From the IMG/VR virus record IMGVR_UViG_3300005253_000023: DNA of 46,420 nt. One strand, given 5' to 3'. The stretch is from a virus. Both the position numbers and the translations under genes were made by a program. Shown here piece after piece: positions 25,041 through 45,945 of the stretch; position 1 is the stretch's first letter, and the number at the start of each line of letters is the position of its first letter. Below the pieces are notes generated by a model. It was not told where the DNA came from and searched no databases. It worked only from the letters and a program-made list of their open reading frames with translations.

Positions 25041-25594
25041 TCTATACAAACATCATTTTCATCGTACTCTACCGATAAGTTAAACCTTACAAAGTGAAAA
25101 TCGCTCATATCATCCTGTGATATTCTTTCACTTAACTCTGCGGATAATGTCAAACCTGTATAGACATTATCCCTGCCTGTAACAAAACTTTCAAGCTCAA
25201 ACATGGCATCTGATCTGTTTATAGCCAAAAATATATCGTTGTGCATCTCTTCATCTGCCCTGTGTAACACCCCGGGATATAGCTGATCTAGCTTGCCCTG
25301 AAATACTATACTTATCTCTGAGGTAAATGAATTAGCATCATACTCCCTGGTAGGATTGACCAGAAAAAAAGAACTTACATTAAATGAGTCATCAAAGAAT
25401 ACATCTTCGTATTCATTGCTTTCCAAATAATGTTCTGGAATAATATCTAGCCCATTAACATTAACATAAACTCTTGGATATGATTGATAGTCTGTCCATG
25501 ATGCCTTGGTAGTTAAATCCGTAAACAGGTGCTTTTGCAGGTTGTTCACCTGAATGTCTACAAGTACCGGGTTATCTTTTAACACTAAGCTCAT
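25037..25594 (-). CDS. virion structural protein (hypothetical)
   Basis: 185-aa ORF with ATGA overlaps. Confidence 0.65.
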   Translation of the reverse strand: MSLVLKDNPVLVDIQVNNLQKHLFTDLTTKASWTDYQSYPRVYVNVNGLDIIPEHYLESNEYEDVFFDDSFNVSSFFLVNPTREYDANSFTSEISIVFQGKLDQLYPGVLHRADEEMHNDIFLAINRSDAMFELESFVTGRDNVYTGLTLSAELSERISQDDMSDFHFVRFNLSVEYDENDVCIE

Positions 25595-26661
25595 GTCATC
25601 GTATCAACTGTCATCCTTACATTTCCATACCCTTCACGCAGTTTAGCGATCTGCTTTCTAATAGAAGCTATCTCACCAAAAAGCATCGGCCGAAGCCCAC
25701 TGATCCGTAATAGCCCTTCCTGATTCTGTCCTTCTATCTCTTGTGTTATACGCACTATTAACTCATCTGTCTTGCGTTCATTTTTATTAGATCGTAGCGA
25801 TGCTAAATAATTTGTCAGTGCATTGATTTGAGCCTTTAGCTGTATTGCACGTGAGAATAATTGCTTATTCTGTTTTATAAGATCAGTGAAATCATCAAAG
25901 ACCATTATGTCAGGATTAAGACCGATAGAACTCTCCAAACTTTCTTCATCATCTAAGTCAAACATCGTTTCCGTATTATGCCCAGGTACGAAAATTCGGC
26001 GTAGCGATAAATGTGTGAACTGTGATTGTATGTCGGCACTCTCAAATTCACGTTCAAAAGGTGTGATGGTTAGCCCATCGGTCAAATATCCCAGATAATA
26101 CTCTCCTTTATAAGTAGTATCAGAATTGTCAACCCTGAAATTCAATACCTCTTCCTGATGATCAGTGGTAATAGTAATTTCCTTCTCAAAAATAGGTGTA
26201 GTAAAAGATGTGTTAAACAACAACAGCTTAAATGTCCCCGTTGTTTTGAAGTCCAGAAGTATCCTTGTAATCTCAAAAGCTATGTTCTTCTCATTGGATA
26301 CCCTGATTTGAAAACCTACAAATCCGTTAGGCAGGGCAACAGTGTCAATCCTATTCTGTGCGTTAATAAATAGTAGATTCTTATCTATATAATCCGCTTC
26401 ATTGAATACAGAATTACATACATCAACAATGCTAGTATCTATCAGTTGCGACAGAAATGTATTAAAGTCAACGTCTGATATGCCCGAATAATCTTGAGTG
26501 TCTTTAAGATACTCAATCTTAGCAAAAGGGTTGTCATTCACAAAATAACCAGAACTACTTAGCAGATTATTAGCATCCACTATGCTAAAATCAGGGTTAA
26601 AAGGTTGCCTATAACCTACCAACCCTGATAAGTCTGTCGTTACTTTGGTCGGGTTAAACAT
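25591..26661 (-). CDS. virion structural protein (hypothetical)
   Basis: 356-aa ORF in the morphogenesis block. Confidence 0.65.
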   Translation of the reverse strand: MFNPTKVTTDLSGLVGYRQPFNPDFSIVDANNLLSSSGYFVNDNPFAKIEYLKDTQDYSGISDVDFNTFLSQLIDTSIVDVCNSVFNEADYIDKNLLFINAQNRIDTVALPNGFVGFQIRVSNEKNIAFEITRILLDFKTTGTFKLLLFNTSFTTPIFEKEITITTDHQEEVLNFRVDNSDTTYKGEYYLGYLTDGLTITPFEREFESADIQSQFTHLSLRRIFVPGHNTETMFDLDDEESLESSIGLNPDIMVFDDFTDLIKQNKQLFSRAIQLKAQINALTNYLASLRSNKNERKTDELIVRITQEIEGQNQEGLLRISGLRPMLFGEIASIRKQIAKLREGYGNVRMTVDTMT

Positions 26662-26910
26662 TTACTTTTTCTTGGGGTCTTTCTTGTCCTGATAAATCTT
26701 ATCCTCGGACTTGTTGATCTCCATGAAGACACCTGAATTTCCAAAGACTGCATTGATACTATCGGCGTAATCATCCGTTACTACCATTCGTTCTTTGATA
26801 ACCTTAGTCATCTTCTTATTCCAACCCTTTTCGTCCTTGTATAAGCTTTTATACTGGGTATAAACACTAAAATTTATGTCAACCTCTAAGAGTTTCTTTG
26901 CCTTTTTCAT
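26662..26910 (-). CDS. hypothetical protein
   Basis: 82-aa lysine-rich ORF directly after the capsid gene. Confidence 0.55.
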   Translation of the reverse strand: MKKAKKLLEVDINFSVYTQYKSLYKDEKGWNKKMTKVIKERMVVTDDYADSINAVFGNSGVFMEINKSEDKIYQDKKDPKKK

Positions 26911-26914
26911 GATC

Positions 26915-27943
26915 CTATACTAATGCGAATGCCAAAAGAGAAGTTTCACCGGCAACCGTCAGTGGTGTATCGTGAAAAGCCAAGTCAAGTGATAGCTCCC
27001 ATTCTGTTTTGGTATCCTGTTTTACTGAATTAGTTGCTGTTCCATCAAATCGTTCTACATAAGTATGCAGAGCGTAAGACAGACCATCTACAGGATTGAT
27101 CATGGTTGAATAAACATCTTCAGGAGTTACCCTACCTTCCCTGTTTTGGCGTGGTATCCATGTGTTTACACCTACAGACCCGTCCTGAATAGCTATCCAT
27201 GCACCTAAGCTGTAAGCAGAAACAAGAGCACCAAACAACGGGCCTAATTCAGGGGATCGTACAAACGTAATTCCTTCATTTTGGAAGGATAAGTTTGTAG
27301 AGTTAGAATTGCCCTGTTGGAGGTCTTTTTCAAACCTGTTGAAAGAAGTCTCATCGCAATAGAATGTATAACTTGGTGAGTAAGCATTAAGATCAAGAAT
27401 AGATTTGGTAATCTGTACAGCACGTTCTCCATTTGTACTGTTTGTGATCTCAAAGGTATCTTCAACAACATCAAAAGTCCCTTCGTTTGATCCCTGATCA
27501 AAGTCTACTGTATTTCTGTTGTTGAATAGATGGTTGATAGCTAATGTCTCAAAGCCATTCATAAAGGCTTTAATACAATTGTCAACGCCTGTATCAAATT
27601 CATCTGCCTGAGTAAAGAAATTGTTATCCATTCTCTTTAGTGAGGTCTGGAATTCAGATGTGCGAGTAACCCAACTGAGGGTTAATAGACTTGAATCCCC
27701 TACTGGGCCAGTATGATTAAATAATCGTTCCGTTCCCAAAGCAGGTGGATCACTGGCGCGAAAATTCGCCTCTACAGCACGATCTTCACGTGTTCTTACT
27801 GAGTTGTCGGGAACAAAGAAGTTCTGATTCTGTAAGAAATTCAGATACGTTGCTGGTCGTCTGAAGCGCAATTCATTTGCTTGAAACCTGTTTATCAATC
27901 TAACTTGCGCGGTTTTTAGATCGGTGGTTGTAAAATCTGCCAT
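26915..27943 (-). CDS. major capsid protein candidate
   Basis: 342 aa, immediately downstream of the scaffold-like gene, with its own leader. Call by synteny. Confidence 0.55.
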   Translation of the reverse strand: MADFTTTDLKTAQVRLINRFQANELRFRRPATYLNFLQNQNFFVPDNSVRTREDRAVEANFRASDPPALGTERLFNHTGPVGDSSLLTLSWVTRTSEFQTSLKRMDNNFFTQADEFDTGVDNCIKAFMNGFETLAINHLFNNRNTVDFDQGSNEGTFDVVEDTFEITNSTNGERAVQITKSILDLNAYSPSYTFYCDETSFNRFEKDLQQGNSNSTNLSFQNEGITFVRSPELGPLFGALVSAYSLGAWIAIQDGSVGVNTWIPRQNREGRVTPEDVYSTMINPVDGLSYALHTYVERFDGTATNSVKQDTKTEWELSLDLAFHDTPLTVAGETSLLAFALV

Positions 27944-27979
27944 TTGATTAATTATTAGATAGTTAGAAAATACCTCTAA

Positions 27980-28067
27980 GCTACCGCTTAATTAATCCCT
28001 GCCAGCTACCGCCAGTCAAATGATTTAGAGAAGTGTTGGCTACCGCCTATATCTTATCAGCTACCGC
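27980..28067 (-). repeat. four direct copies of GGCGGTAGCY (minus-strand sense) in the capsid-gene leader
   Basis: Plus-strand GCTACCGC at 27980..27987, 28005..28012, 28039..28046 and 28060..28067. The region is non-coding. Confidence 0.85.
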
Positions 28068-28076
28068 CGATTATTG

Positions 28077-28084
28077 CAAAAGTA
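28077..28084 (-). promoter_or_regulatory. -7-type promoter box TACTTTTG
   Basis: Fits TAnnTTTG. Sits just after the scaffold stop and upstream of the repeat array. Confidence 0.35.
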
Positions 28085-28089
28085 AGGAA

Positions 28090-28905
28090 TTAATCTTTAA
28101 ATTCCTTTTTTAACGTTCTTTTAAGAAGTTCTTGGTTGATCTGTTCATCTGTTTTACCCTCTTCTTCCAACTTCGCTACAACTTCCTCTACATCCGTTCC
28201 CTTCTTTGGGTTTTCATTGCCTCCTCCTGCTCCGCCTTCGGCTTTCTTTCGGAAGTCATTAACAAAATCCCCCATAATAACATCTATCTTCAAAGGTGAT
28301 TCCATTTTGTCTTTTAGGATACCGCCACCGTTTTTAGAAAAGGTAAGGTTGCCGTCCTCAAGGCTGGTATTAAATTCACTCTTAAAAAGGATCAACGCAC
28401 GATCCCGACTGATATTCAGACCGCTTTCGGGAATAGCCCTCATTAACATATTATCTATTGTGGTCTGCTGCTTGAATTGACTGAAGGTTTTTTCATGGTT
28501 TTCAAATAAATCCTTTTGCTCTTGTATTGTTATGCGCAACTTTCCCAGGCTTTCATTTTGTTCCTGAATCTTTTTATCAGGCTCTATCTTGGCATCTTCC
28601 AAAACTTTATTTTGGAAAGCATCTAGAAAGATATTCAAGTCCTTTTTGCCTTCAAACGCTTCCATGCCTCTGTCTATTTTGGCTTGCTTAATGGCCATTT
28701 CTAAATTCAGATTACTAAAGTCTGACTTTGCCTGACTTTTAATGTTCTCTGTTAGCGTAGCTTTGAAGGTGTCGTCCTCTTCTTTGGTTCTTATTACTTC
28801 GGGCAAGGAAATTTCTACTTCTTCATCCTCTGTAAAGCCTTTTGCCAGCACACCTTCTTCAAGGCCGAGCCGTTTTTCTAAATCTTTTATATTTTTAATG
28901 GGCAT
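28090..28905 (-). CDS. scaffolding protein candidate
   Basis: 271 aa, E/K-rich, predicted helical, Gly-rich near the C-terminus. Lies between the portal candidate and the capsid gene. Confidence 0.55.
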   Translation of the reverse strand: MPIKNIKDLEKRLGLEEGVLAKGFTEDEEVEISLPEVIRTKEEDDTFKATLTENIKSQAKSDFSNLNLEMAIKQAKIDRGMEAFEGKKDLNIFLDAFQNKVLEDAKIEPDKKIQEQNESLGKLRITIQEQKDLFENHEKTFSQFKQQTTIDNMLMRAIPESGLNISRDRALILFKSEFNTSLEDGNLTFSKNGGGILKDKMESPLKIDVIMGDFVNDFRKKAEGGAGGGNENPKKGTDVEEVVAKLEEEGKTDEQINQELLKRTLKKEFKD

Positions 28906-29380
28906 AATTGATATTGTTTTGGTCTAATAATTCAGTGAGTTTGGGTTCTTTTGCTAGGTGATGATATTTGATTTTATGCTTATCAAGTAAAGCTTTCATC
29001 TCTTGCAATGTTGCCGAAGGCGATTCGGCTTCCGCTTCTTTAATCTTGTTCACATCCGGGATGTTGCGCTCAGGCATAGGCACATGATCCGCCAAAGCAT
29101 CATTCAATACGTGCTTCAGTACATTGCCTTTCAATAGCTCATCGCTTTCTTTTTGGGCTTTCCTTTTACGCATCTTTGCCTCTCCGTCTACATAATACTT
29201 GTTAGTGGCCTCTTCATCTATCTCATAAATCTTACCACCATTTACCCAATTTGCATTGGTTTGCTCATACCATTCTTTCGTAATTTTTGCCGCTGGCATC
29301 AGTAATGTTTTGTGTTCTTTGGTGAATCCTTTCTCATTTCTGAAAAGTTGATAGTGCCGACATACATAAATTTCATTCAT
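28895..29380 (-). CDS. hypothetical protein
   Basis: 161-aa ORF overlapping both neighbours. Confidence 0.6.
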   Translation of the reverse strand: MNEIYVCRHYQLFRNEKGFTKEHKTLLMPAAKITKEWYEQTNANWVNGGKIYEIDEEATNKYYVDGEAKMRKRKAQKESDELLKGNVLKHVLNDALADHVPMPERNIPDVNKIKEAEAESPSATLQEMKALLDKHKIKYHHLAKEPKLTELLDQNNINYAH

Positions 29381-31016
29381 CGCTATTTTTTATTTGATTA
29401 GTTTCAAACCAGCTATCAAAGCTGGCCTTTAATTCTTTTTCTGTTGATTTGAAGACAAAATCCTTGCTTTGTTCTTCCCACCAGTCGCGAAACTGTACTT
29501 TTTTTCGTGCTTGCTTCTGGTTAAATATCTCTCCCACCTGTTCGGCTGTGTAATGAAGATACGGCTCTATGTTTGATTTTTTCACCAACACATTCAGCCA
29601 AATAGGATCGTTGTGGAATTTGGCCGTGATCCATTCGTTATATAACCTATCAAGGATTACCGTACTGTCTCCCTTGTCTTTAGACATCTCATAACGCTTA
29701 AGGATCATATCGCTTGACTCAATGATATATCGCCTGCCGTAGGCTATAAGTGCCGCATTTTCTTCTTTGTCGCGTGTTGGCTGCAAGAAATCTGCAATGA
29801 AATTGGTAATCTGCAATTCCATAAACTCCGTAGTAGATGAATAGAAGTCTAGCTTATTTTCCAAAGGCTGTTTGTTCATTATCACAATTTCTGTTGCAGT
29901 TTTATTGGTGATCCTGTCTTCAGATACCCCTATAACAGTACCCCAATGAGTAACACTAGCCATATCCTGAAGTAATTCAAGCTCTTTTGTAAACTGATCC
30001 CAGGCATCAATATCAGGTGATACAAAGCCCATAATATTAGGTGCAAGGACAGTTTCATTCGCTTGGGGTATTTTAAGACGTATAACATCTGTTACATCAT
30101 TGGTAACAAGCCATCCTTTACCATTACAGTTCTTACATGACTCTGATGATGCGCCTGATTTGCCCGTTCCTTTACACATCGCACAGCCCATCTCATAACG
30201 CCACATCTTAGGAAATCCCTGTTGAAATTTAAAGATCGTCTTAATAGACTGATCACGGGCATATTCCCTGCTCAACTCTACTACTGATCTGATCGGTGAT
30301 TCCTTAAATTCTTCACCAACCTTTTGAATATTAGAATTAACAATTCCCGGTACACGTGAAAAAGGATGTTCAAAGGTATGTTCCTGGTCTACGGTAAAAG
30401 TATCACCTGATTCAATGATAGTATAATCCTTTTCGTCGTCTACCAATCGCCATAATTTTGCACCTTCTGGTAACACTTTAGGTTCAAACAATAGTAAATG
30501 AATGCGTTGTCCTATTACCCTGTACGTTTTTATTGATCCTATTGACTTATAAGTAGGGTAAACATCATCTACGCCGTGAATCTCTTCAGTTGTATATTCC
30601 ATGAAGACGATGCCATTCGGATCAGTATGATAAACCCTCATCCACTGGGTTTGTAGCCATTCTTCTATTGACTTATCACCGCGAAGATTCATGGTTTTGG
30701 CTATCAATTCAGCTTTGTCATCGTCGTTTTCAATAAGATACTTACGACTACCCCCGGTTGCTGAAAATACGTTATCAACAGGTGTTAACAGCCTTTGGTA
30801 GAAATCAACAATAGATCGTGAATATTTACGTCTTGATTTGGATTTAGACTCAGATTCCAGGTGCTCAATACGAAGAATGAGTTCTTCTAAGAATCCATCA
30901 CCTTCAATTAATGCGTTTAGCGTTTTTGATTGTTTGCGTGCTTCAATAATAAACGGATCATTGCCTTGATGGGCTTTAACAAAGTCTATCGCTGCTTGAT
31001 CGTCTACAAATACCAC
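29373..31016 (-). CDS. portal protein candidate with an embedded DnaJ-type zinc finger
   Basis: 547 aa, GTG start. Size and position (upstream of scaffold and capsid). CAMCKGTG-x8-CKNCNGKG motif. Confidence 0.45.
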   Translation of the reverse strand: MVFVDDQAAIDFVKAHQGNDPFIIEARKQSKTLNALIEGDGFLEELILRIEHLESESKSKSRRKYSRSIVDFYQRLLTPVDNVFSATGGSRKYLIENDDDKAELIAKTMNLRGDKSIEEWLQTQWMRVYHTDPNGIVFMEYTTEEIHGVDDVYPTYKSIGSIKTYRVIGQRIHLLLFEPKVLPEGAKLWRLVDDEKDYTIIESGDTFTVDQEHTFEHPFSRVPGIVNSNIQKVGEEFKESPIRSVVELSREYARDQSIKTIFKFQQGFPKMWRYEMGCAMCKGTGKSGASSESCKNCNGKGWLVTNDVTDVIRLKIPQANETVLAPNIMGFVSPDIDAWDQFTKELELLQDMASVTHWGTVIGVSEDRITNKTATEIVIMNKQPLENKLDFYSSTTEFMELQITNFIADFLQPTRDKEENAALIAYGRRYIIESSDMILKRYEMSKDKGDSTVILDRLYNEWITAKFHNDPIWLNVLVKKSNIEPYLHYTAEQVGEIFNQKQARKKVQFRDWWEEQSKDFVFKSTEKELKASFDSWFETNQIKNSDE

Positions 31017-31023
31017 TTACGGG

Positions 31024-31031
31024 CAAAGGTA
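31024..31031 (-). promoter_or_regulatory. -7-type promoter box TACCTTTG, 7 nt from the GTG start
   Basis: Same octamer as in the 5123 and 40375 boxes. Confidence 0.4.
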
Positions 31032-31064
31032 AGGAAAATTGTTTAAATACGATGATTGCCCTTT

Positions 31065-31316
31065 TTATAGCTGATCCATTAAATCAAATGTTTCACATGC
31101 TATAAAATCTTCACTGACTTTATTGATTGCTGTTTGTATTTTATTTAAGGCCGTTAATTTATCTTTATTCCAATTAGTCTTTGAAGATTCATTATCGTCG
31201 TTTCCAAAGTAAACTGCTGTGATTAATATTTTACCATCCTCATGATTATAAATTATTTCTAAATCACCGTACTTTTTAGTCTTTATTATTCTATGTAATG
31301 ATTGCATTTTTATCAA
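31065..31316 (-). CDS. hypothetical protein
   Basis: 83-aa ORF. Confidence 0.55.
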   Translation of the reverse strand: MIKMQSLHRIIKTKKYGDLEIIYNHEDGKILITAVYFGNDDNESSKTNWNKDKLTALNKIQTAINKVSEDFIACETFDLMDQL

Positions 31317-31320
31317 AGTT

Positions 31321-31497
31321 TTATTTATCCTCTAGAGAATTTACAGCATGTTTTGCTTTAATTAATGAGTCTCCTAGTATTTTAATACTCTTTGTTAATT
31401 TCTTAATGTTGTACGTGAGACTTTTCCTTTTCTCAACTGTCCCCCAACTAGCGGCCATAGGCTCTATGCTCTTATCCGTTCTCTTCTCAGGTTTCAT
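31321..31497 (-). CDS. hypothetical protein
   Basis: Start set to the ATG at 31497 (MKPEKR). Confidence 0.45.
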   Translation of the reverse strand: MKPEKRTDKSIEPMAASWGTVEKRKSLTYNIKKLTKSIKILGDSLIKAKHAVNSLEDK

Positions 31498-31687
31498 GAT
31501 ACACAATTTTTACATTATCTAAATAATCAACTAATGATAATTTACCATCATCTTCTATGAGCATTAACAGTCGCGTTTCAGTTAGAGCCTTTTTATCACG
31601 CTCAGTGAGTTGGTGTTTTGGAAACAATTCTTTAATTTCCTCATCGGGTATTTTAGTTCCATCGGGATATTCCCATTCAATCTTCAT
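31487..31687 (-). CDS. hypothetical protein
   Basis: Start set to the ATG at 31687 (MKIEWEY). A TATATTTG box (31694..31701) lies 6 nt upstream. Confidence 0.5.
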   Translation of the reverse strand: MKIEWEYPDGTKIPDEEIKELFPKHQLTERDKKALTETRLLMLIEDDGKLSLVDYLDNVKIVYHET

Positions 31688-31708
31688 GATACACAAATAT
31701 AATTATAT

Positions 31709-31972
31709 TTATACTGTTATTGCTGATTCAACTCTTTTACCAAATAGAAAATAAAAGCTCATACCATAACTATCACCACAACCCCAATTAGAATTTTCAA
31801 TCTGAATTTCTTGGTTGAAAGTAATGGCACGTTCAATATACATGCCATCACCTTCTAATATTTCCTTAGATGCTTCCAAATATTTTCTTTGTCGCAGACC
31901 CTTATATTCATCATACGCATAAGGCTGACCTATCTCGTCAAAGGTCTTTTTAAGTTTTTCCAGGTCTGTCAT
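31709..31972 (-). CDS. hypothetical protein
   Basis: 87-aa ORF with an ATGA overlap with the upstream gene. Confidence 0.55.
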   Translation of the reverse strand: MTDLEKLKKTFDEIGQPYAYDEYKGLRQRKYLEASKEILEGDGMYIERAITFNQEIQIENSNWGCGDSYGMSFYFLFGKRVESAITV

Positions 31973-32439
31973 TTATCTAGTGTGTTAATGTTTATTGCCA
32001 GCCTGGCATCAATCAACCCGAATACATCAAAGTGCCATTCAAAGAGTTTTTCCATTATTGCCATGCAATTCTCAATATCCACTCCTGCGTTTCCACCTGT
32101 CTTAATCATAACCGTCTTAGGTACAGGTTTCCCCTCTTCTTCATATAGCCAGTCCGCTTCTGGATTAATACTGCCTACAGACAAATACCAACTCATATGC
32201 TTAGGCTTGACGCCTTCATGATTTATAGGCACAAACCTCTCGCCATTGTGTTCTATTTCTTTGGTGAGGTCGGGAAGAGGGTGTAAATATGGACTTTGAA
32301 AGTACCCGATATTACCTCTCTTTAGGGTTATTAATTGTTTGCCATTATTAGTTCTTCCTTGTAATCCATAAGGCAAATAAGGGGCAAGGTGCTTTAATTC
32401 CAGTTTCATCTCTGTGTGTTTAGCTCTTTTCCCGTTCAT
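31969..32439 (-). CDS. hypothetical protein
   Basis: 156-aa ORF. An alternative start lies at 32409 (MKLELKHL). Confidence 0.6.
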   Translation of the reverse strand: MNGKRAKHTEMKLELKHLAPYLPYGLQGRTNNGKQLITLKRGNIGYFQSPYLHPLPDLTKEIEHNGERFVPINHEGVKPKHMSWYLSVGSINPEADWLYEEEGKPVPKTVMIKTGGNAGVDIENCMAIMEKLFEWHFDVFGLIDARLAININTLDK

Positions 32440-32441
32440 TT

Positions 32442-32699
32442 TTAGAACAGTTCTTTATTGGCCACTTCCATAACCTCTAAAGCATTCTGGATGTCGGCAA
32501 TTTCAACCATCGTTTCCCCGATCGCCGTCAAGGAAAAGTCTTCTTCCGCTGATTTCAGATCGTCTAATTTTTGTTCTGCTTCGGCCAGTTGTTGTTTGCA
32601 TTCCAGAAGGTCGGCTTCCGCTTTTAATTTTGATCTTCCGTTTAGAAAATCTTTGCCCTTGGATTCTTTGTCTTGTTGGATTCTTTTTAGGTATTTCAT
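32442..32699 (-). CDS. coiled-coil protein
   Basis: 85 aa with a protein-like composition (KLKAEADLLECKQQLAEAEQKLDDLK). Confidence 0.55.
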   Translation of the reverse strand: MKYLKRIQQDKESKGKDFLNGRSKLKAEADLLECKQQLAEAEQKLDDLKSAEEDFSLTAIGETMVEIADIQNALEVMEVANKELF

Positions 32700-33132
32700 T
32701 ATTTTTTATTATTAATTTTCTTACGTGATAAAAATCAGAATTGGGATCGCCGTCTTGATCTACTATTCTCCATTGTTGTGAATATCCAAATGTATTCTTT
32801 AGCCCCCACTCACTTCCATTAGTGTCATTGCATAAAAAAACACCTTGTGAACTAACATGCACCTTCCCCTCACAATATTTCCTATTAATTTCAGCTGTAA
32901 ACTCAGCCCCGTGAACATATTCAATTGATTTCTTGCCAAAGTCTCCTGCTTTGGCACTCTTGTGAAGACGAACCCAATAACCATTGCCTTGAGATGACTT
33001 ATTCCACCAACATCTGAATATTGCATCATGTAATGAATCTACAATTTCCTCTAAATCCTTACTTTCTCTAATACACCACACCTTGTGAGGCTCTGGTAAT
33101 TGTTCAAACCATTCTTTGGATGTCTTTCCCAT
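32503..33132 (-). CDS. hypothetical protein; the last ~65 codons overlap 32442..32699 out of frame
   Basis: 209-aa ORF. The tail after ...HVRKLIIKNN is R/K-rich and looks like out-of-frame read-through. The true end is uncertain. Confidence 0.5.
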   Translation of the reverse strand: MGKTSKEWFEQLPEPHKVWCIRESKDLEEIVDSLHDAIFRCWWNKSSQGNGYWVRLHKSAKAGDFGKKSIEYVHGAEFTAEINRKYCEGKVHVSSQGVFLCNDTNGSEWGLKNTFGYSQQWRIVDQDGDPNSDFYHVRKLIIKNNEIPKKNPTRQRIQGQRFSKRKIKIKSGSRPSGMQTTTGRSRTKIRRSEISGRRLFLDGDRGNDG

Positions 33133-33155
33133 AGCTATCTTTAATGTTCATACTG

Positions 33156-33178
33156 CGAATATACAAAATATCTTTGTA
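33156..33178 (-). promoter_or_regulatory. promoter/operator box: TACAAA-N5-TTTGTA + TATATTCG
   Basis: The minus strand reads TACAAAGATATTTTGTATATTCG, 23 nt upstream of the ATG at 33132. Confidence 0.5.
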
Positions 33179-33189
33179 CTAACCAAGAA

Positions 33190-33429
33190 CTATCTTTTGT
33201 TTGTGGGTTGCTTTATTAATTCCCATTCGGCAACATCACAGAAGACCGTCCTTTCCTGTTTTTCGCAGATTATAAAGCAGCTATCTTTTATGCAGAATTT
33301 CGTCCGGGGCTTTGAGCTTTTAACGTACAATGTATCTGACTCAGAAACGCCGTCTGAATGCGTTACATTGACTATGTAGGTGTGTTGATAGCTGCATGAG
33401 AACAGTAGGCTAAGAAGTAGATATTTCAT
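33190..33429 (-). CDS. putative secreted lipoprotein
   Basis: MKYLLLSLLFSC: signal peptide ending in a lipobox-like LFSC. Cys-rich mature part. Confidence 0.5.
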   Translation of the reverse strand: MKYLLLSLLFSCSYQHTYIVNVTHSDGVSESDTLYVKSSKPRTKFCIKDSCFIICEKQERTVFCDVAEWELIKQPTNKR

Positions 33430-33683
33430 CTTTTCTTTTCAAACTCCATAAGTGCTTTCTCTCCATCAGGAACAATACGAATATACAATCCATGACCTGT
33501 TGCATAATCTGAAATAAGACCTTTCACACGTAAACTCTCTTGTGTTTTCCAGTGTATCGTCTTTTCAAAATATTCCTGTCTCATTTCTTTCTTGCCAATA
33601 AGTAATTTAAGGGCATATGCTTGTTTATTTGTAAGTGTATTACACCAATCTAAATATTCTCTTCTAGCTTCTAATAAATCCAT
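33426..33683 (-). CDS. hypothetical protein
   Basis: 85-aa ORF with an ATGA overlap. Confidence 0.55.
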   Translation of the reverse strand: MDLLEARREYLDWCNTLTNKQAYALKLLIGKKEMRQEYFEKTIHWKTQESLRVKGLISDYATGHGLYIRIVPDGEKALMEFEKKR

Positions 33684-33685
33684 AG

Positions 33686-34042
33686 CTAATCTTTAATTAC
33701 GGTTTCATCTTTCAAAGTTAGTTCTTCGTTTGTAAGGGCATAGTAAAGGTTTTGGACTTGGTGGACATATTTGATCTCCATTCCAGTATGATAAAAATAA
33801 TAACCCTTTCGTTGTTCTTTAATGCTTATTCTATCCTTGGTGTAGCTGTGCGTTTTTTTGACAAACCCAAACTTCTCCAACCATTCTTTGGTGAGGGGGA
33901 TTGCCCTACATTTCATATTCCCGTGTTCAATTTGAACCAAATCTTCTGCATCCTCTATTTGCGTTTCAAATCCATAGGTTCTTTCTGTTTCACCATATTC
34001 AAAATCTACCCAATTGCCAATTCTAAGTTCTTGTGATTTCAT
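33686..34042 (-). CDS. hypothetical protein
   Basis: 118-aa ORF. Confidence 0.6.
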   Translation of the reverse strand: MKSQELRIGNWVDFEYGETERTYGFETQIEDAEDLVQIEHGNMKCRAIPLTKEWLEKFGFVKKTHSYTKDRISIKEQRKGYYFYHTGMEIKYVHQVQNLYYALTNEELTLKDETVIKD

Positions 34043-34122
34043 AGTTTCATTCCAAATATACTACCATAAGTCCATTTTCTAGTATCTCTTCGTTTCCCTC
34101 TAAATTTTATTTCCCGTCCCAT
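34039..34122 (-). pseudogene. 27-codon ORF resembling only the N-terminus of YopX-type phage proteins
   Basis: MGREIKFRGKRRDTRKWTYGSIFGMKL, then a stop in an ATGA overlap. YopX-like proteins normally continue for more than 100 aa. Confidence 0.3.
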
Positions 34123-34159
34123 TTCTTATATCGTTTAGTTACACAGTGCATTACTGCTA

Positions 34160-34453
34160 TTAATAATTCCATTTACTTTTAATAATTCTGTACCCGTTAG
34201 CTTTTAACAAAGTAACCAGTTCGTTAGCGCAAATAGTACAAAGTTCCATTTCTTCTGTCTGGCCGTCCCCTGATCCAGGGTATCTAAACCCCTGCACAAG
34301 TTCAAATGTAAACTCATCGGCACTATGGCTGCCGTGTGCTATCTTTTCTTCGCATTTATCGCATTCATGAAATCTCTCCTTCTCAACCTCAGATTCATGG
34401 GCTGGGATAATTTCTTCTGGAACTAGTAATTTCTCTTTTATAGTTACTTGCAT
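34160..34453 (-). CDS. zinc-ribbon protein
   Basis: HECDKCEEK...ELCTICANEL (CxxC...CxxC). First gene after the structured leader. Confidence 0.6.
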   Translation of the reverse strand: MQVTIKEKLLVPEEIIPAHESEVEKERFHECDKCEEKIAHGSHSADEFTFELVQGFRYPGSGDGQTEEMELCTICANELVTLLKANGYRIIKSKWNY

Positions 34454-34467
34454 AATCGTTGTTTAAA

Positions 34468-34633
34468 AGTGGTTGGAGCAGGATTTTATACCCGCATGGT
34501 TCAGTCGGTTTTACTTTGGGAACAGATTGTTACATCCTATTAATCAAAGCACACTCCCCAGTGTTGGAGGAAGGCCGAGAACGAATCCCATATTTACCAT
34601 AACTCCTTTCTCGCCTTTTTATATCCAACCACT
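34468..34633 (-). promoter_or_regulatory. structured ~166-nt 5' leader closed by a perfect 10-bp helix
   Basis: AGTGGTTGGA (34468..34477) is the exact reverse complement of TCCAACCACT (34624..34633). Internal hairpins CGAGAA/TTCTCG and ACACT-GGGG-AGTGT. Locally GC-rich. Confidence 0.45.
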
Positions 34634-34636
34634 CTA

Positions 34637-34659
34637 CGAAGGTACAAAACTAATTTGTA
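34637..34659 (-). promoter_or_regulatory. promoter/operator box: TACAAA-N5-TTTGTA + TACCTTCG
   Basis: The minus strand reads TACAAATTAGTTTTGTACCTTCG. Lies directly after the terminator and 3 nt before the leader helix. Confidence 0.55.
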
Positions 34660-34673
34660 ATATGCAAGCAACA

Positions 34674-34705
34674 AAAAAGCCCACCTATTAAGATGGGCTT
34701 TTTAA
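34674..34705 (-). terminator. strong intrinsic terminator (bidirectional geometry)
   Basis: The minus strand reads AGCCCATC-TTAATA-GGTGGGCT followed by TTTTTT. An A-run precedes it. Confidence 0.75.
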
Positions 34706-34735
34706 TTATTCTCATATCTCAGAGCGGTAGCCTTA
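34674..34735 (-). ncRNA. candidate ~60-nt sRNA (or terL 3'UTR-derived RNA) carrying GGCUACCGCU
   Basis: A TATATTTG box (reverse complement of 34740..34747) lies upstream and the terminator hairpin closes the 3' end. No ORF. Confidence 0.3.
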
Positions 34736-35083
34736 TTCACAAATATACTACTTTTTTTGCAGGCCATTTATGGTTCACTAAATATCTTTTGGGCCATATC
34801 TGTATGATTGTGGCCTATAAAAGCAAAAACCGCCAAGTCTGTCTCCCTTGACGATTTCGTTTCTCCTTTGACACTTGGTCAACGAGATATACAACATTAT
34901 CCCCACATCTGCCAAAGGCAAATAAAAACATGCTCCACCCTTTGCCGACCAATATTGACTAAGGTTTTTAACTTATTGATTATCAACCATGGACCTCAAA
35001 CAGCTATTTTTAATCGTTTTTACTTTAATTAACATTGTTAAATCATTGATAATAAGGAATATAAACCATGGTCCAGATAGGAC

Positions 35084-36391
35084 CTACCCCCACATCATTA
35101 CACTGCTAGGCTGTAATTCAAACCATTCACGCATCATAATACTGTCCCATTCGTCAGGAGAACGCCCGATATTGGCCTTTACATCCTCTTTGGGTACTAC
35201 TCTCAATTTTCCGTCCTTGTCTATGTCACGCTGCTTGACCTGCTCCATTTCCTGAATGATCCTTTCTCGTAACCCCACATCAGTACATTCTTCATACACT
35301 TCTTTACGTGTGATCCTGCCAGCCATTTTGAAGGTACACTGTGCTTTTAAACTATCGTAATTTACCGATTGTCCTTGCTCATCTAAGGCTCTAGAGTTAT
35401 TGACGAACCCTTTACATTCTAATATATCTACAACTCCCGATCCGATCCCATCCTCATCCACTATCACCTGACTCATGGGTACTTTGTACATATTGGCAAG
35501 CTTCCTGATTTCTGCCGCCGATTCAGTGATTAATGATATCTTCATCTCCTTGCGATCTATCACCGTAAACCCATCCCAGACACGTATAATCGTGCTGTCA
35601 CGGCCTTTTCTTGCTATGTCGGCGGTAATGTAGTCTTCGCCCGGTTCAACGTGCTGATTCTTAAAGTAATCTTCAATTGAATCCCGGTCAATTAATGTTC
35701 GCGGGTCGTCGTCGTACTCCCATTCACCAAAAAGCAATCGTTGTTTGCTGATCTCATCTAGTGTCAGTAAGTTCTCCCGGTAATGTTCTGAGATATACGG
35801 ATTGTCAGATAAGAGAGCTTGTACAAACTTTCTATATTCGGGCAAAGTACCGTCCTTCCAAGGCTTATAGAACCGTGAATACACCCAGTTCTTAGTAGGA
35901 TTACAGCTACCTAATATCTTCGGTGTAAGCCCATATTCATCCAGCCTATACCTGATCCTTGACTTAACGATGTTCCACCCTTTTTCGTCTATCTGATTGA
36001 CCTCATCCAAGAATGCCCCGGTAATCTCTAATGATCCAAGTTCATCATAATGTGGATCGCTAGGATAATGAAATAAGTCTTTGAGAAGGATCTCACTACC
36101 ATTGGAATAATAAATAGTGCTTTTCTGTTGGTTGTAATCGTGAATATTAGGGTCAAGGTCTAACTTTTTGAATATGTCAAAATAGGTGTTTAGAGTAGTT
36201 TCCTTGAGTGTTTTAAGCCTTGACCTACCCATTAGCCATCTAGTGCCTGGAAAGCGTGTACAGCGATCTATGAGCCACAATGAACCAAGAGAACTTTTCG
36301 CGCCACCTGCTCCGCCTCCGAAAAGTATTTCAGTCGTTGTCTTGTCGGCGAGATACTTGGTGGCTACGGTCTGCTTTTTGGTGAGCTTCAT
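35084..36391 (-). CDS. terL: terminase large subunit
   Basis: N-terminal Walker A FGGGAGGAKS. 435 aa with terminase-like organisation. Adjacent to TerS and HNH. Confidence 0.85.
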   Translation of the reverse strand: MKLTKKQTVATKYLADKTTTEILFGGGAGGAKSSLGSLWLIDRCTRFPGTRWLMGRSRLKTLKETTLNTYFDIFKKLDLDPNIHDYNQQKSTIYYSNGSEILLKDLFHYPSDPHYDELGSLEITGAFLDEVNQIDEKGWNIVKSRIRYRLDEYGLTPKILGSCNPTKNWVYSRFYKPWKDGTLPEYRKFVQALLSDNPYISEHYRENLLTLDEISKQRLLFGEWEYDDDPRTLIDRDSIEDYFKNQHVEPGEDYITADIARKGRDSTIIRVWDGFTVIDRKEMKISLITESAAEIRKLANMYKVPMSQVIVDEDGIGSGVVDILECKGFVNNSRALDEQGQSVNYDSLKAQCTFKMAGRITRKEVYEECTDVGLRERIIQEMEQVKQRDIDKDGKLRVVPKEDVKANIGRSPDEWDSIMMREWFELQPSSVMMWG

Positions 36392-36653: not shown

Positions 36654-36990
36654 CAGGTATCACATGGATGGTTATTGGCTTGCCGCCTGTAGTATGATCA
36701 ATTTCTTTCTTGTCAGCCCATCCAAAACGATTGCGCATATTCATATAAAACAGGGTTGCATTAAACTTAGGGTTTTCAAGGTTTTCCCGTGCATTTTTCA
36801 TCCACCAGCCTAGTGAAAAGTCTGTCCCTCTTTTTTTAGCGTGTAATAACTCATCGTGTTTCTTACACCAGTTGTAGAAAGTCTTCTTCGCAACATTCAG
36901 TTCAAGACATATTTCCTCAATAGAATATCCTTGCTTCATAAAGGAAACTACTTTATCAGGAATATCTTCTGAATATTTACTTGGCCTCAT
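36643..36990 (-). CDS. terS: terminase small subunit
   Basis: PSKYSEDIPDKVVSFMKQGYSIEEICLELNVAKKTFYNWCKKHDEL...FYMNMRNRFGWADK: an HTH-type small terminase pattern. Confidence 0.65.
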   Translation of the reverse strand: MRPSKYSEDIPDKVVSFMKQGYSIEEICLELNVAKKTFYNWCKKHDELLHAKKRGTDFSLGWWMKNARENLENPKFNATLFYMNMRNRFGWADKKEIDHTTGGKPITIHVIPDEE

Positions 36991-37525
36991 AGATGGAATC
37001 CTTTTTAGACATATTAGTACTAGGCTGTAATAATTGTATATTACTTGATGTATGTGTTCCTCCTTTAGATAGTGGAATTACGTGGTCTAAGTGATAGTTG
37101 CCATTACTTATATCTTTACCACTTATTGCGCATTTATAATTCTGTTCTTTTAACAGATGTATAATAAATCCCCCCGTCACTGTGCCATCTGAAGTTGATC
37201 TTTTTTTTGACCTTCTTTCTTGATTCACAGCCTTTACAAGCGCCTTACCTTCTTCAGAATTATACCGCTCCCTTTTATATGTGTTGATAGCATCCTTATT
37301 ATTTAAGTAATACTCTCTCATTTTGATAGCATATTTAGGATTGCTATTCTTTAGTAGCCTATACTTATCCCGGGTATCCCAATAAAATTTTGATTGACAA
37401 ACTTTACACGGTGACTGATGCCCCGATTTTGCCCTTTTATCTTTATTAAAAAATTCAACACTTTTCAATAGGCCACACTTTGTACAAACTTTTTGTCCAT
37501 TAACTATTAAAGGGGGTCTGGGCAT
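36977..37525 (-). CDS. HNH endonuclease (terminase-associated)
   Basis: YHLDHVIPLSKGGTHTSSNIQLL motif with N-terminal Cys pairs. Confidence 0.8.
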   Translation of the reverse strand: MPRPPLIVNGQKVCTKCGLLKSVEFFNKDKRAKSGHQSPCKVCQSKFYWDTRDKYRLLKNSNPKYAIKMREYYLNNKDAINTYKRERYNSEEGKALVKAVNQERRSKKRSTSDGTVTGGFIIHLLKEQNYKCAISGKDISNGNYHLDHVIPLSKGGTHTSSNIQLLQPSTNMSKKDSIYEAK

Positions 37526-40479: not shown

Positions 40480-40508
40480 CGCAAGCCGCCTTATGGGCGG
40501 TTTTTGCG
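40480..40508 (-). terminator. intrinsic terminator (two-tier hairpin) enclosing the HNH stop codon
   Basis: CGCAA...CCGCC-cataa-GGCGG...TTGCG on the minus strand, followed by GATTTTATTTTT. Confidence 0.55.
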
Positions 40509-40889
40509 TTCTTTAAACAAACTTTTTGTTTTTATTTTATGGCAAGGAATACATAGGGTTTGATAATTCTCAATTCCCCGGCCTCCTCCACCGTTTACAA
40601 CCTCTACAATATGATCAGCGTGCCATTCATCCCATTTAGTCTGAATACCACAATTACGACATTTATACCTATCAATTTTAGAAAGCTCATTTCTTATAGT
40701 TTGAACATCCCCTTTTATGATCCAATAATCGGTAAGTAATGGTTTAACACAATCATCAGTCGCCCACCTTTTTCTCCTGCCTGTTAATTTTACACCACAA
40801 CCACAAGAACATGTTCCATCTGGAGGATTAGGATACATCTCATGTAGTTTGAAATCCTTTTGATATCTCTTATATGGGTCTATTGGCAT
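40491..40889 (-). CDS. HNH endonuclease (free-standing)
   Basis: WHADHIVEVVNGGGG...NYQTLCIPCHKIKT motif plus Cys clusters. Confidence 0.8.
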   Translation of the reverse strand: MPIDPYKRYQKDFKLHEMYPNPPDGTCSCGCGVKLTGRRKRWATDDCVKPLLTDYWIIKGDVQTIRNELSKIDRYKCRNCGIQTKWDEWHADHIVEVVNGGGGRGIENYQTLCIPCHKIKTKSLFKERKNRP

Positions 40890-43442: not shown

Positions 43443-43952
43443 TTAAAAACCTTCGTATTTTAATTTGTACTCTCCTTCTTTATTAAAACCTATGCCATTA
43501 ATTGAATAGTCATAAGTATATATTTCAAAAATTAAAGTATTAGAATTTAGCAGGAAATCAACCAGATATATAATATCATCGTCCATATTAACATCAGAAC
43601 CAATACAGATAATTTTATATGTAACAGGATATTTGAATTCTCTTTTTTCTAAATAATTCCTGATTCCTTTAATATATCTAAGGGCTTGTAAAAAAGTATT
43701 TGTACTAACTAAATCCTTTTTTAATTCATAAACTGTAATAGTAGCAGGTATTGCATGTTCTTTTTTAATATTCCATCGTGGCCTTTCAAACGTAATTACA
43801 TCAGCAATCCCATAAGCTCCTATTTTGAATTGCCTGAATATTTTATTAGGATAATAAATAGGGAATCCTTTATTTATAAGGTTTTCAATTGATTCCTTAT
43901 CTTTGATATTGTCCCAGATAATATCTTCCAAATCTTTTTCTAAGAACTTCAT
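43443..43952 (-). CDS. PD-(D/E)XK nuclease-like protein (NucS/DUF91-like)
   Basis: Start at the ATG at 43952 (MKFLEKDLEDIIW). GIADVITFE...TVYELKK resembles a D...ExK core. Confidence 0.45.
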   Translation of the reverse strand: MKFLEKDLEDIIWDNIKDKESIENLINKGFPIYYPNKIFRQFKIGAYGIADVITFERPRWNIKKEHAIPATITVYELKKDLVSTNTFLQALRYIKGIRNYLEKREFKYPVTYKIICIGSDVNMDDDIIYLVDFLLNSNTLIFEIYTYDYSINGIGFNKEGEYKLKYEGF

Positions 43953-43977
43953 AATATAAAAGCCTACTAAAAAGGTT

Positions 43978-44054
43978 GTGACAAAACGATGCAAGAAAGT
44001 TTTTACCTTCCGTTCGGCTTAATTTTTATGTTCAAATGATTTTCGTTTCGTCAC
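43978..44054 (-). promoter_or_regulatory. 5' leader clamp: 12-bp helix (one G:U) enclosing 53 nt
   Basis: Minus-strand GUGACGAAACGA (44043..44054) pairs with UCGUUUUGUCAC (43978..43989). The 5' arm starts 4 nt after the TATATTTG box. Confidence 0.4.
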
Positions 44055-44077
44055 ATTACAAATATAGTCTTTTATTC
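44054..44077 (-). promoter_or_regulatory. 24-nt exact repeat containing a TATATTTG box (copy 1)
   Basis: CATTACAAATATAGTCTTTTATTC is identical to 45603..45626. The reverse complement contains TAnnTTTG. Confidence 0.5.
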
Positions 44078-44605
44078 TTCCATTGCATATAAAATATTGT
44101 AATACCTAGCAATTTTTTCATAGGTTTCAACAACTACATCTATAGCTTCATTAAAGCGTTTAGTGGCATCATCACATTTATCGTCATAAAATTGATAAAT
44201 ACTATTTTCAGTCATTTCATTTGCAATAAAGTTATTCTTAATTTTTTTATCTAAATACCATGCTGATTTTTGGCTTATACTCAGAACCCGGCCTAATTGA
44301 TGGGTGCTTATTCCTTCAGGGGATAAGTAAAGTGCAACAAATAACTTACGAATGGGTAATTTACTTTCTTGAAATGGTGTACCAATACGAATACTAAATT
44401 GCTTTCTGCATTTCTTACATTTCCATCGCTTGCCACGATTGGTTAAATTCAATTCATAGCAAACATCGTGATTACAATATTGACAAATAGGTTTACCATT
44501 CCATCTAAATTGAGCTAAATAATCAACACATTTTTCTTCTGTATTTAATTCCGATAATAGATCAAATGTTGATTCAAATTCTTGTCGCAAATGTTCTATA
44601 ATCAT
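44072..44605 (-). CDS. IS1595-type transposase N-terminal Zn-ribbon/HTH domain protein (no DDE domain)
   Basis: CVDYLAQFRWNGKPICQYCNH...WKCKKCRKQFSIRIGTPFQESKLPIRKLFVALYL...SAWYLDKKIK. Start at the ATG at 44605. Confidence 0.6.
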   Translation of the reverse strand: MIIEHLRQEFESTFDLLSELNTEEKCVDYLAQFRWNGKPICQYCNHDVCYELNLTNRGKRWKCKKCRKQFSIRIGTPFQESKLPIRKLFVALYLSPEGISTHQLGRVLSISQKSAWYLDKKIKNNFIANEMTENSIYQFYDDKCDDATKRFNEAIDVVVETYEKIARYYNILYAMEE

Positions 44606-45067: not shown

Positions 45068-45481
45068 CTATTCTACTGTATTTGTTATCCTGGTTTTTGC
45101 TTCTAGGATAGGCAAGTTTGCTTCTGTTGGTATGTAAATCTTATCACCATCCATTTTGTCAATATTTCTAACCCATAAATATTGTATATACTTATCAGTT
45201 AATTTCCCATCTTCTATCTCAATAGCTATCGCCATTCCCTTTGCGCGTTCAACTTCTGCCTGACTATTTAATTTTTGAGATTCTAAATTTGCCTTTGCTT
45301 CTTCAATAAGAATCTTTCTATTTTGTTCTGCTTTTGCCATTTCAGCACGCCCAAAATTTTCAGCACTTTCAATCTTAACCTTTGACCTCCAAACCTGATA
45401 TTTTGGTAAGCCAAACATAGCACACATAATAATAACAATAATCGTAAGCACGATTGTAAAAAACCATCCTAATTCACTCAT
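45068..45481 (-). CDS. membrane-anchored protein with an SPFH/band-7 C-terminal-like region
   Basis: N-terminal TM FFTIVLTIIVIIMCAMFGL. AEMAKAEQNRKILIEEAKANLESQKLNSQAEVERAKGMA helical repeat. Confidence 0.4.
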   Translation of the reverse strand: MSELGWFFTIVLTIIVIIMCAMFGLPKYQVWRSKVKIESAENFGRAEMAKAEQNRKILIEEAKANLESQKLNSQAEVERAKGMAIAIEIEDGKLTDKYIQYLWVRNIDKMDGDKIYIPTEANLPILEAKTRITNTVE

Positions 45482-45522
45482 AATATTTAAATTAAATTAA
45501 TCAAAAAGCCCTTCCAACATGT

Positions 45523-45603
45523 TGCACACTTACCAGGAAGTAAGATGACACGTTTTCGGGGCTATGAAAAAAGTTTTTGTAACATGTCCTGGTCTAAGTG
45601 TGC
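45523..45603 (-). promoter_or_regulatory. 5' leader clamp: imperfect ~15-bp helix with a 2-nt bulge
   Basis: Minus-strand GCACACUUAGACCAGG (45589..45603 region) pairs with CCUGGUAAGUGUGC (45524..45537 region). The 5' arm starts 4 nt after the TATATTTG box. Confidence 0.35.
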
Positions 45604-45626
45604 ATTACAAATATAGTCTTTTATTC
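45603..45626 (-). promoter_or_regulatory. 24-nt exact repeat containing a TATATTTG box (copy 2)
   Basis: Identical to 44054..44077. Lies between the stop of 45631..45945 and the leader of 45068..45481. Confidence 0.5.
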
Positions 45627-45630
45627 GGGG

Positions 45631-45945
45631 CTATCTGTTATTTTCATACAATTTAAAACCCTTTTCTGTTAATCCATAGTAGTGACAACCATCATCATCA
45701 CACCACTCCGAAGGAATATTAATATATTGTCCTTCTCTCACTATGTCTATTACTGCAACCTCATTATCACCATAGGCATGAATATGGGAATCTCCAAATC
45801 CACTAATATTTTTAGCATCATAAGCATATAGCGAGCCGTATCTATTGACAAAATTTATTCCTTCTTTTTCACAATCTTTATAAGCCTTTTTTAATCTATT
45901 AAAAGCACGTTGCTGGTTTGCTGTTAAATCAAATATGTCTTCCAT
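45631..45945 (-). CDS. hypothetical protein
   Basis: 104-aa ORF. Confidence 0.6.
   Translation of the reverse strand: MEDIFDLTANQQRAFNRLKKAYKDCEKEGINFVNRYGSLYAYDAKNISGFGDSHIHAYGDNEVAVIDIVREGQYINIPSEWCDDDGCHYYGLTEKGFKLYENNR

Follow-up and report, generated by a model that had tools for sequence, protein, structure and literature searches.

A long untranslated leader closed by a predicted 5'-proximal helix ahead of an accessory gene island in a Flavobacteriaceae-type phage

Ahead of an island of small genes, the phage genome analysed here carries an untranslated stretch whose first nucleotides are complementary to a segment close to the first start codon. This raises the question of whether the resulting helix serves the message of the island or is a fortuitous pairing within a spacer. 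The stretch of DNA that was analysed (the window, 46,420 nt) is a rotated copy of the 46,444-nt contig C19 (GC 36.9%), which is a separate piece within a 4.7-Mb, 31-contig Bacteroidota-family assembly of approximately 34.5% GC (the host assembly). C19 is a complete tailed-phage genome, and the phage is uncultured, of the Flavobacteriaceae type and from marine sediment; its DNA was found in marine-sediment metagenomes from three studies. Nearly all phage genes are located on the minus strand. The order near the leader is an HNH endonuclease, a small-terminase-like HTH protein, TerL, a 630-nt gap free of ORFs, the small-gene island and a portal-sized gene. The island comprises small genes of unknown function and reaches to about 31100. 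A strong bidirectional terminator hairpin ends the terL unit and lies directly upstream of the leader promoter. The phage genes also include a YqaJ exonuclease and an ERF annealing protein, which form a short-homology recombination pair, and two HNH endonucleases (706..1966, 36977..37525, 40491..40889).

The predicted promoter of the leader, TTTG-N19-TAGTTTTG, follows the Bacteroidota sigma-A consensus (PMC6847099) and is one of three full consensus matches in the window, where 2.1 are expected by chance. As the -7 box spans positions -12 to -5 in Flavobacterium psychrophilum (PMC9723704), the transcription start is predicted at 34640. This start would place the outer part of the helix from +2 and its main part from +6, and would give a 5' UTR of 187 nt. 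The proposal that the leader is very long for this phage is thereby borne out, since the leaders behind six other TAnnTTTG boxes of the phage measure just 4-18 nt; the median 5' UTR of F. psychrophilum is 24 nt (PMC9723704). Within the gap, no further consensus promoter box was found ahead of the 97-aa gene, the first of the island, and a neighbouring promoter-terminator unit occupies 34747..34674. The sequence UUAAACAACGAUUAUG, which follows the 3' arm of the helix, carries an A at -3 and at -6, both of which are positive determinants of initiation in Flavobacterium (PMC6847099). The stretch is most likely a genuine 5' untranslated leader behind a Bacteroidota-type promoter.

The perfect 10-bp helix of the original prediction can be read directly in the sequence, as can the start codon at 34453. 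The RNA arms AGUGGUUGGA (34633..34624) and UCCAACCACU (34477..34468), which correspond to AGTGGTTGGA and TCCAACCACT in minus-strand letters, pair over their full length, and in RNAfold the pairing grows to 12 bp with one G-U pair. An outer 4-bp helix follows past a 6-nt one-sided loop, so that the 3' arm stops 2 nt short of the AUG (Table 1). The 12 pairs of the main helix have probabilities of 0.9-1.0 when 187, 341, 481 or 645 nt are folded, whereas the weak outer helix drops in probability in the longer contexts. With RNAduplex, the energy of the main duplex (-20.6 kcal/mol) falls in the 0.3% tail among all strand positions. The fold of the 187-nt leader has a z-score of -3.1 against dinucleotide shuffles (-2.7 for 194 nt) and takes 16th place among 1850 GC-corrected sliding windows. 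The closing helix accounts for the whole fold signal of the leader. Among 187-nt folds across the window, the highest stability after GC correction (-4.15 sd) is reached at 20876..21112 on the minus strand, inside a 962-aa ORF (18855..21743); this region holds two inverted repeats, a perfect one of 12 bp (20927-20938 / 20980-20991) and one of 19 nt (20998-21016 / 21042-21060).

Table 1. Positions of the leader, its surroundings and the two other clamped leaders in the window.
Feature	Position	Strand	Basis or remark
TerL	36391..35084	-	Pfam Terminase_3
Intrinsic terminator hairpin, 13 pairs, strong, bidirectional	34674..34703	-	Terminator scan; inverted-repeat list
Predicted sigma-A promoter TTTG-N19-TAGTTTTG	34645..34675	-	-33 TTTG at 34675..34672; -7 box at 34652..34645
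Predicted transcription start (+1)	34640	-	Fifth nucleotide past the box, rule from PMC9723704
Clamp 5' arm	34624..34639	-	UCGU (34639..34636) + AGAGUGGUUGGA (34635..34624)
Enclosed 146 nt, four predicted hairpins	34478..34623	-	No stabler than shuffles
Upstream microhomology copy AGAAAGGAGTTATGGTA	34595..34611	-	Sequence comparison
18-codon ATG frame (MVNMGFVLGLPPTLGSVL) inside the clamp	34544..34600	-	Translation putative
Clamp 3' arm	34456..34477	-	UCCAACCACUUU (34477..34466), 6-nt one-sided loop, ACGA (34459..34456)
First island gene, 97-aa CxxC...CxxC zinc-ribbon protein	34160..34453	-	ATG at 34453
Segment absent from the variant (X4, L117), 533 nt	34062..34594	-	Contig alignments
Downstream microhomology copy AGAAAATGGACTTATGGTA	34062..34080	-	Inside the 27-codon stub
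27-codon ORF stub	34039..34122	-	Matches just residues 1-25 of the 164-position phrog_8684
Second clamped leader	43978..44066	-	Box TATATTTG (44066..44059), +1 at 44054
Third clamped leader	45524..45615	-	+1 at 45603; same 24-nt promoter repeat as the second

Our tentative reading is that the leader helix clamps the 5' end of the island mRNA and thereby protects or insulates it; we would give this reading somewhat less than an even chance. The terminator would end the terL unit, and TTTG-N19-TAGTTTTG would restart transcription at about 34640. The first 16 nt of the RNA would then pair with the segment that ends 2 nt before the AUG, looping out 146 nt. If, as we infer, this helix forms in vivo, the message would lack a free 5' end and may be shielded from 5'-end-dependent decay by RNase E/G-type enzymes, including its pyrophosphohydrolase step, with a possible effect on RNA half-life. 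The long untranslated stretch would be folded into a compact domain, and the A/U-rich ribosome landing pad, with its A at -3 and -6, would be left exposed. The clamp reading is favoured by the robust 12+4-bp helix and its position between the predicted start and the AUG, and further by the recurrence of the layout in two other leaders of the phage, described below, for which neither the host nor related phages show enrichment. Pairing of the 5' terminus is an established bacterial mRNA stabiliser, according to Emory 1992 and Bouvet & Belasco 1992 as relayed by PMC3997798. The stable helix and a host 5'-end-dependent RNase that such a stabiliser involves are both present: the host assembly encodes an RNase E/G-family enzyme (PF10150), RNase Y and RNase III, and has no RNase J above the cut-off. 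A Pfam scan of the early phage genes gave no RNA-decay or NUDIX function that would explain protection of the 5' end. Known 5' stabilisers tolerate just a few unpaired 5' nucleotides. A main helix predicted to begin only at +6, with a weak outer helix closing the gap from +2, weighs against a clamp of the stabiliser type; the helices of the two sister leaders begin at the predicted +1.

The same stretch could be a neutral spacer, left over from the shuffling of cassettes in a hyperplastic island, in which the helix would be fortuitous and functionless. Inverted repeats of this size are indeed at chance frequency: there are 21 exact 10-nt inverted repeats with a spacing of 20-250 nt in the window and 20.9 in shuffles, so the closing helix alone is not beyond chance. 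With at least 5 G/C the numbers are 5 in the window versus 1.5 in shuffles, and the expectation of one to two such perfect 10-bp repeats per window weighs against the clamp reading. The inner fold is likewise at the chance level, in keeping with a spacer. The enclosed 146 nt have a z-score of -0.75, with 21% of shuffles folding equally well, and the helices CGAGAA/UUCUCG and ACACU..AGUGU, which had been singled out at the outset, are therefore not special. The leader had also been called GC-rich; at 43.4% versus 36.9% for the window it is, although this is a modest excess, at about the 90th percentile of 166-nt windows. It is roughly correct, for coding-strand ATG starts, that the 18-codon frame is the only one in the leader; a 32-codon TTG frame and an antisense 72-codon TTG frame also exist. 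Neither the 32-aa nor the 72-aa product has a family match, and a homologue search with the antisense frame, the sole frame of the two that was searched, found nothing.

Debris of genes in the island is also in line with a neutral spacer. The 27-codon stub, which matches phrog_8684, is what remains of the 5' end of a lost gene, and it runs into the beginning of a 118-aa phrog_10066 gene. It further marks one end of a natural deletion, which became apparent when contigs from four runs were compared over 34100..35100. In run X4, from another study (2019), a contig with a depth of 77 matches 34595..35100, and its loose end is exactly 34032..34061. The public contig L117 (SDBV01014017.1, 10,143 nt) is independent and shows an identical junction. 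Its matches to the window are 35694..34595 at 99.3%, 34079..33189 at 97.6% and, after a mosaic island, 31499..25075 at 98.8%. The deletion of 533 nt removes the greater part of the leader, its 3' arm included, along with the 97-aa gene and the greater part of the 27-codon stub; it also interrupts the 18-codon frame after codon 2. As AGAAA(AT)GGA(G/C)TTATGGTA is present at both ends, the variant is best read as a putative microhomology-mediated deletion over 17-19 nt. Such a deletion is plausible given the ERF/YqaJ recombinase pair of the phage, which favours short-homology exchange and in this respect also suits a neutral spacer. A further possibility, that the leader's first 40 nt arose from the YopX-like stub by duplication and decay, was rejected, just the 17-19-nt microhomology being significant (p ~0.013).

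The leader of the variant, approximately 70 nt long, contains no replacement clamp, and its best pairing of -10.3 kcal/mol is the median of random positions. Judged from these contigs, the clamp is dispensable in at least one circulating lineage, and a variant of high depth that has neither the 3' arm nor a substitute weighs against the clamp reading; a leader that is restricted to a lineage and can be lost is what a neutral spacer would be. L117 and the window differ at eight places over 1.1 kb, and seven of these are located within 34610..34691. They affect the terminator loop, the -33 TTTG, which is lost, and 34633, where the 5' arm has an A-to-G change in its first base; the -7 box is unchanged. 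Such clustering, right beside the junction of the deletion, points to either a recombination boundary or relaxed constraint. Between the end of terL and the terminator lie 380 nt (34704..35083) that are ORF-free, the same in L117 and the window, and of above-average fold stability. The island itself is mosaic, in phages that share about 99% identity in terL and the structural genes (L117 versus window 34595..31499), which again fits a spacer in a shuffled region. In L117, a 237-aa ORF takes the place of window 33189..32718, a 76-aa ORF with flanks lacking a blastn match takes the place of 32431..31973, and the segment 31972..31684 is merely 78% identical.

What counts against a neutral spacer is the placement of the helix, exactly between the predicted start and the AUG (p ~0.003 for the given start), and its recurrence. 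When all TAnnTTTG boxes on the coding strand were listed, two further long leaders with the same layout and other sequences were found. In the second leader, GUGACGAAACGA (44054..44043) pairs with UCGUUUUGUCAC (43989..43978) over 12 bp with a probability of approximately 1.0. In the third, GCACACUU..ACCAGGA (45603..45587) pairs with 45538..45524 as 8 + 7 pairs with a 2-nt bulge between them, with probabilities of 0.7-0.98 in three of four contexts. Both clamps begin exactly at the predicted start. The two leaders (43950..44082 and 45479..45631) share the 24-nt promoter, AAC after the 3' arm, GGCTTTT, and ATATTATG at the start codon, while their clamp arms are unrelated sequences, each self-complementary. 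Differing arms under an identical promoter would look like the compensated divergence of paralogues. As for the genes that follow, the third leader (box at 45608) was absent from the relatives of its 137-aa gene, and a 169-aa nuclease-like gene, which follows the second leader (box at 44059), has no viral relatives.

Because the initial choice of two among the three clamps was made by eye, there is an ascertainment risk; this risk was lessened by applying a fixed rule to all boxes. The start was set at the G of the box plus 5, the first 20 nt were paired with +31..+250 by RNAduplex, and p was taken against all strand positions. The rule gave p values of 0.003 (34640), 0.011 (44054), 0.0002 (45603) and 0.22 (capsid leader), and a Fisher combined p of 2.3e-6 for the four long leaders. 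The exception is the capsid leader, which has small repeated hairpins instead of a clamp. In the host assembly, 2.2% of 226 boxes with 60-250-nt intergenic leaders reach -18 kcal/mol, versus 0.9% of shifted controls, and in the related phage loci none of 39 boxes reaches p <= 0.05 for a clamp. Neither the host nor the related phages are thus enriched for clamps at the start, and the recurrence in this one phage, with a combined p of 2e-6, counts against a neutral spacer. Considering both sides, we regard the neutral spacer as a sizeable possibility, but on the whole an unlikely one.

The clamp reading can be extended to the whole phage. It is conceivable, if rather doubtful, that a rule peculiar to this phage has evolved for its long leaders, by which three independent units (the accessory island, a replication module and a membrane-protein unit) would each clamp their 5' end to a site 53-146 nt downstream, giving a 'closed-loop' 5' UTR that would hide the end from host decay or from a defence nuclease.

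It had been proposed that the leader is a cis-regulatory RNA (riboswitch, thermosensor or protein-binding leader) or a stable ncRNA. A cis-acting feature of the leader is plausible, whereas a riboswitch, a thermosensor and a stand-alone ncRNA are unsupported. As a regulatory switch, the clamp would be opened or locked by the zinc-ribbon product, by another phage or host protein, by a small ligand, or by ribosomes on the 18-codon frame, and would set the translation of the first gene. The multi-branch domain with a terminal closing helix has an aptamer-like architecture, and the variant has lost the 97-aa gene along with the leader. A helix of 12 bp and -20 kcal/mol is far more stable than the P1 helices of switches, which counts against this explanation, as does the chance level of the inner structure. 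A switch is favoured by the placement of the two helices, with the outer one stopping 2 nt short of the AUG and the main 3' arm covering -13 to -24, since pairing within -20..+20 tunes initiation in Flavobacterium (PMC6847099). On the other side, only 2 nt separate the AGGAG ahead of the 18-codon frame from the ATG of that frame, and Shine-Dalgarno sequences are not used in Bacteroidota (PMC6847099). In the predicted ensemble there is no sequestering or competing helix and no terminator hairpin after the 3' arm, and the AUG plus the six nucleotides -7..-12 are unpaired. A thermosensor of the ROSE or fourU type was rejected: the main helix (-20.6 kcal/mol, probability of about 1.0 at 37 C) is too stable and, at -13..-24, too far from the AUG, which is free. 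A riboswitch is not supported either, because no expression platform follows the helix and no match to a curated covariance model or homologue was found in genomes, loci or collections.

The searches behind this statement were broad. The Rfam search suggested by the original prediction (Rfam 15, gathering threshold, whole window) gave no family, and at E <= 10 over 34300..34800 nearly all matches were centred on the terminator 34674..34703, with none over the leader body. ARAGORN found neither a tRNA nor a tmRNA gene in the window. A tRNA, tmRNA or Y-RNA-like element was thus rejected by both programs; the hairpin adjoining the 3' arm has an 8-nt UAUAAAAU loop, which by inspection is not a T-loop. 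A MITE or IS element was also rejected, the stretch being present in one copy in the 4.7-Mb assembly and its flanks (ttcgt and taaac) lacking a target-site duplication. Using blastn with 651 nt of the gap, just generic terminator-hairpin matches were obtained in 400 genomes of the family, and nothing matched in the phage collection. For a single-sequence covariance model of the leader and its fold, the leader itself was the sole match across 150 further genomes, 68 of them from the same genus, and 95 loci. The gap sequence was not found by blastn or nhmmer in 80 IMG/VR phage loci (TerL 54-60% identical), in which the genes after terL differ from those of the window. Exact-pattern scans found nothing in viral contigs, one chance match in genomes (an Oscillospiraceae MAG) and, in metagenomes, one true relative (L117, the deletion variant) plus five chance matches in GC-rich DNA. 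Conservation in relatives had been set beforehand as a test, and with no homologue in 550 related genomes, 80 phage loci and the pattern scans, a conserved riboswitch-like element is ruled out by it. A leader without homologues also gives no comparative (covariation) support for the helix.

The gene behind the leader is more widespread than the leader itself. Although the 97-aa protein seemed an orphan in a word-indexed search, an exhaustive HMMER search retrieved 98 remote clusters of 78-111 residues (E <= 1e-3); the family has no Pfam or PHROG match. The leader is absent from the upstream regions of those homologues whose surroundings were compared, and most of these homologues belong to closely packed runs of small phage genes that overlap or are spaced by about 30-50 nt. 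The homologue of one phage (L126-L129) is directly preceded by a tRNA-Met, and ParB_N and TAGT genes lie downstream. On the sequences compared, the leader appears to be neither a conserved RNA nor a companion of the 97-aa gene family, which together with the lack of an Rfam family makes a regulatory switch improbable.

Two further explanations concern the fate of the RNA itself. The helix could be an RNase III site, at which the host enzyme would cut the 16-bp interrupted helix and leave a short message with a 5'-monophosphate. A long-range helix with a one-sided internal loop around dispensable sequence, the RNase III encoded by the host, and a deletion variant that works with a short leader resembling a processing product are all in its favour. 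However, 12 contiguous pairs are the lower limit for RNase III substrates, which counts against processing, and the other two clamps are also short (12 bp; 8 + 7 pairs with a 2-nt bulge), so we give this explanation only a slim chance. Finally, a stand-alone stable small RNA of approximately 175 nt, ending at UUUU after the 3' arm and leaving the downstream genes to read-through, would suit the own promoter, the helix joining both ends, the four U after the 3' arm and the neighbouring unit 34747..34674, which indicates that the gap can hold small transcription units, but it is very unlikely, since a hairpin-type terminator is lacking (the loop closed by the helix is 146 nt long, with just four U after it), no family match or homologue exists, and the gap has no other consensus promoter, so that the first island gene would depend on read-through.

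If the clamp reading holds, Bacteroidota phages would protect or gate long leaders via a distant site rather than a local hairpin, in a phylum without Shine-Dalgarno-based initiation in which translation signals and RNA decay are poorly understood, and the clamps would offer simple portable parts to stabilise transgene mRNAs in Flavobacteria. If the helix is fortuitous, the stretch is an ordinary spacer in a shuffled island. The deletion variant would be a clean example of an accessory island losing a gene together with its leader by 17-19-nt microhomology.

Among known systems, the surroundings of the leader resemble the PeSL cassettes of T4-like phages, in which a terminator hairpin directly precedes a promoter heading small orphan genes in a hyperplastic region (PMC2839356, PMC4122927). 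The same arrangement is found here, with the terminator 34703..34674 and the promoter 34675..34645 before small variable genes, and in both cases close relatives differ by indels. In contrast, PeSLs occur in many repeated, mutually recombining copies, whereas the phage and the host assembly together hold a single copy of the cassette; the deletion ended in microhomology located 29-45 nt downstream of the predicted start and not in the terminator-promoter cassette. Moreover, PeSLs have not been described as clamping the 5' end of the RNA.

Known processing structures include the RNase III hairpin of the lambda N leader and the RNase III stems that flank rRNAs. The lambda N leader is likewise a structured leader between an early promoter and the first gene, with a long-range helix around removable RNA. 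Compared with the lambda N and rRNA stems, the helix described here is shorter (12+4 bp) and has no sequence relation to them. The roles of RNase III are reviewed in PMC3997798. Riboswitch aptamers closed by a P1 helix also have a multi-branch domain in the 5' leader and an end-to-end helix, but in the present leader no family, conservation or expression platform is found, the inner fold is at the chance level, and the closing helix is much longer and more stable than a switching P1.

The closest likeness is to the 5' stem-loop stabilisers of E. coli ompA and papA (Emory, Bouvet & Belasco 1992, cited in PMC3997798), in which the first nucleotides of the transcript are paired within an untranslated leader, as is predicted for this phage. 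As in the stabiliser systems, the host of the phage has a 5'-end-dependent enzyme of the RNase E/G type. These stabilisers are local hairpins of approximately 10-30 nt, whereas in this phage the partner is 146 nt away, or 53-57 nt away in the other two leaders. Further 5' stabilisers are the stem-loop at +1 of the T7 phi10 transcript and those of B. subtilis aprE and SP82. The feature of the leader is a lineage-specific form of a known type of element, and by this analogy it would work most like the 5'-terminal stem stabilisers, with a distant partner replacing the local hairpin.
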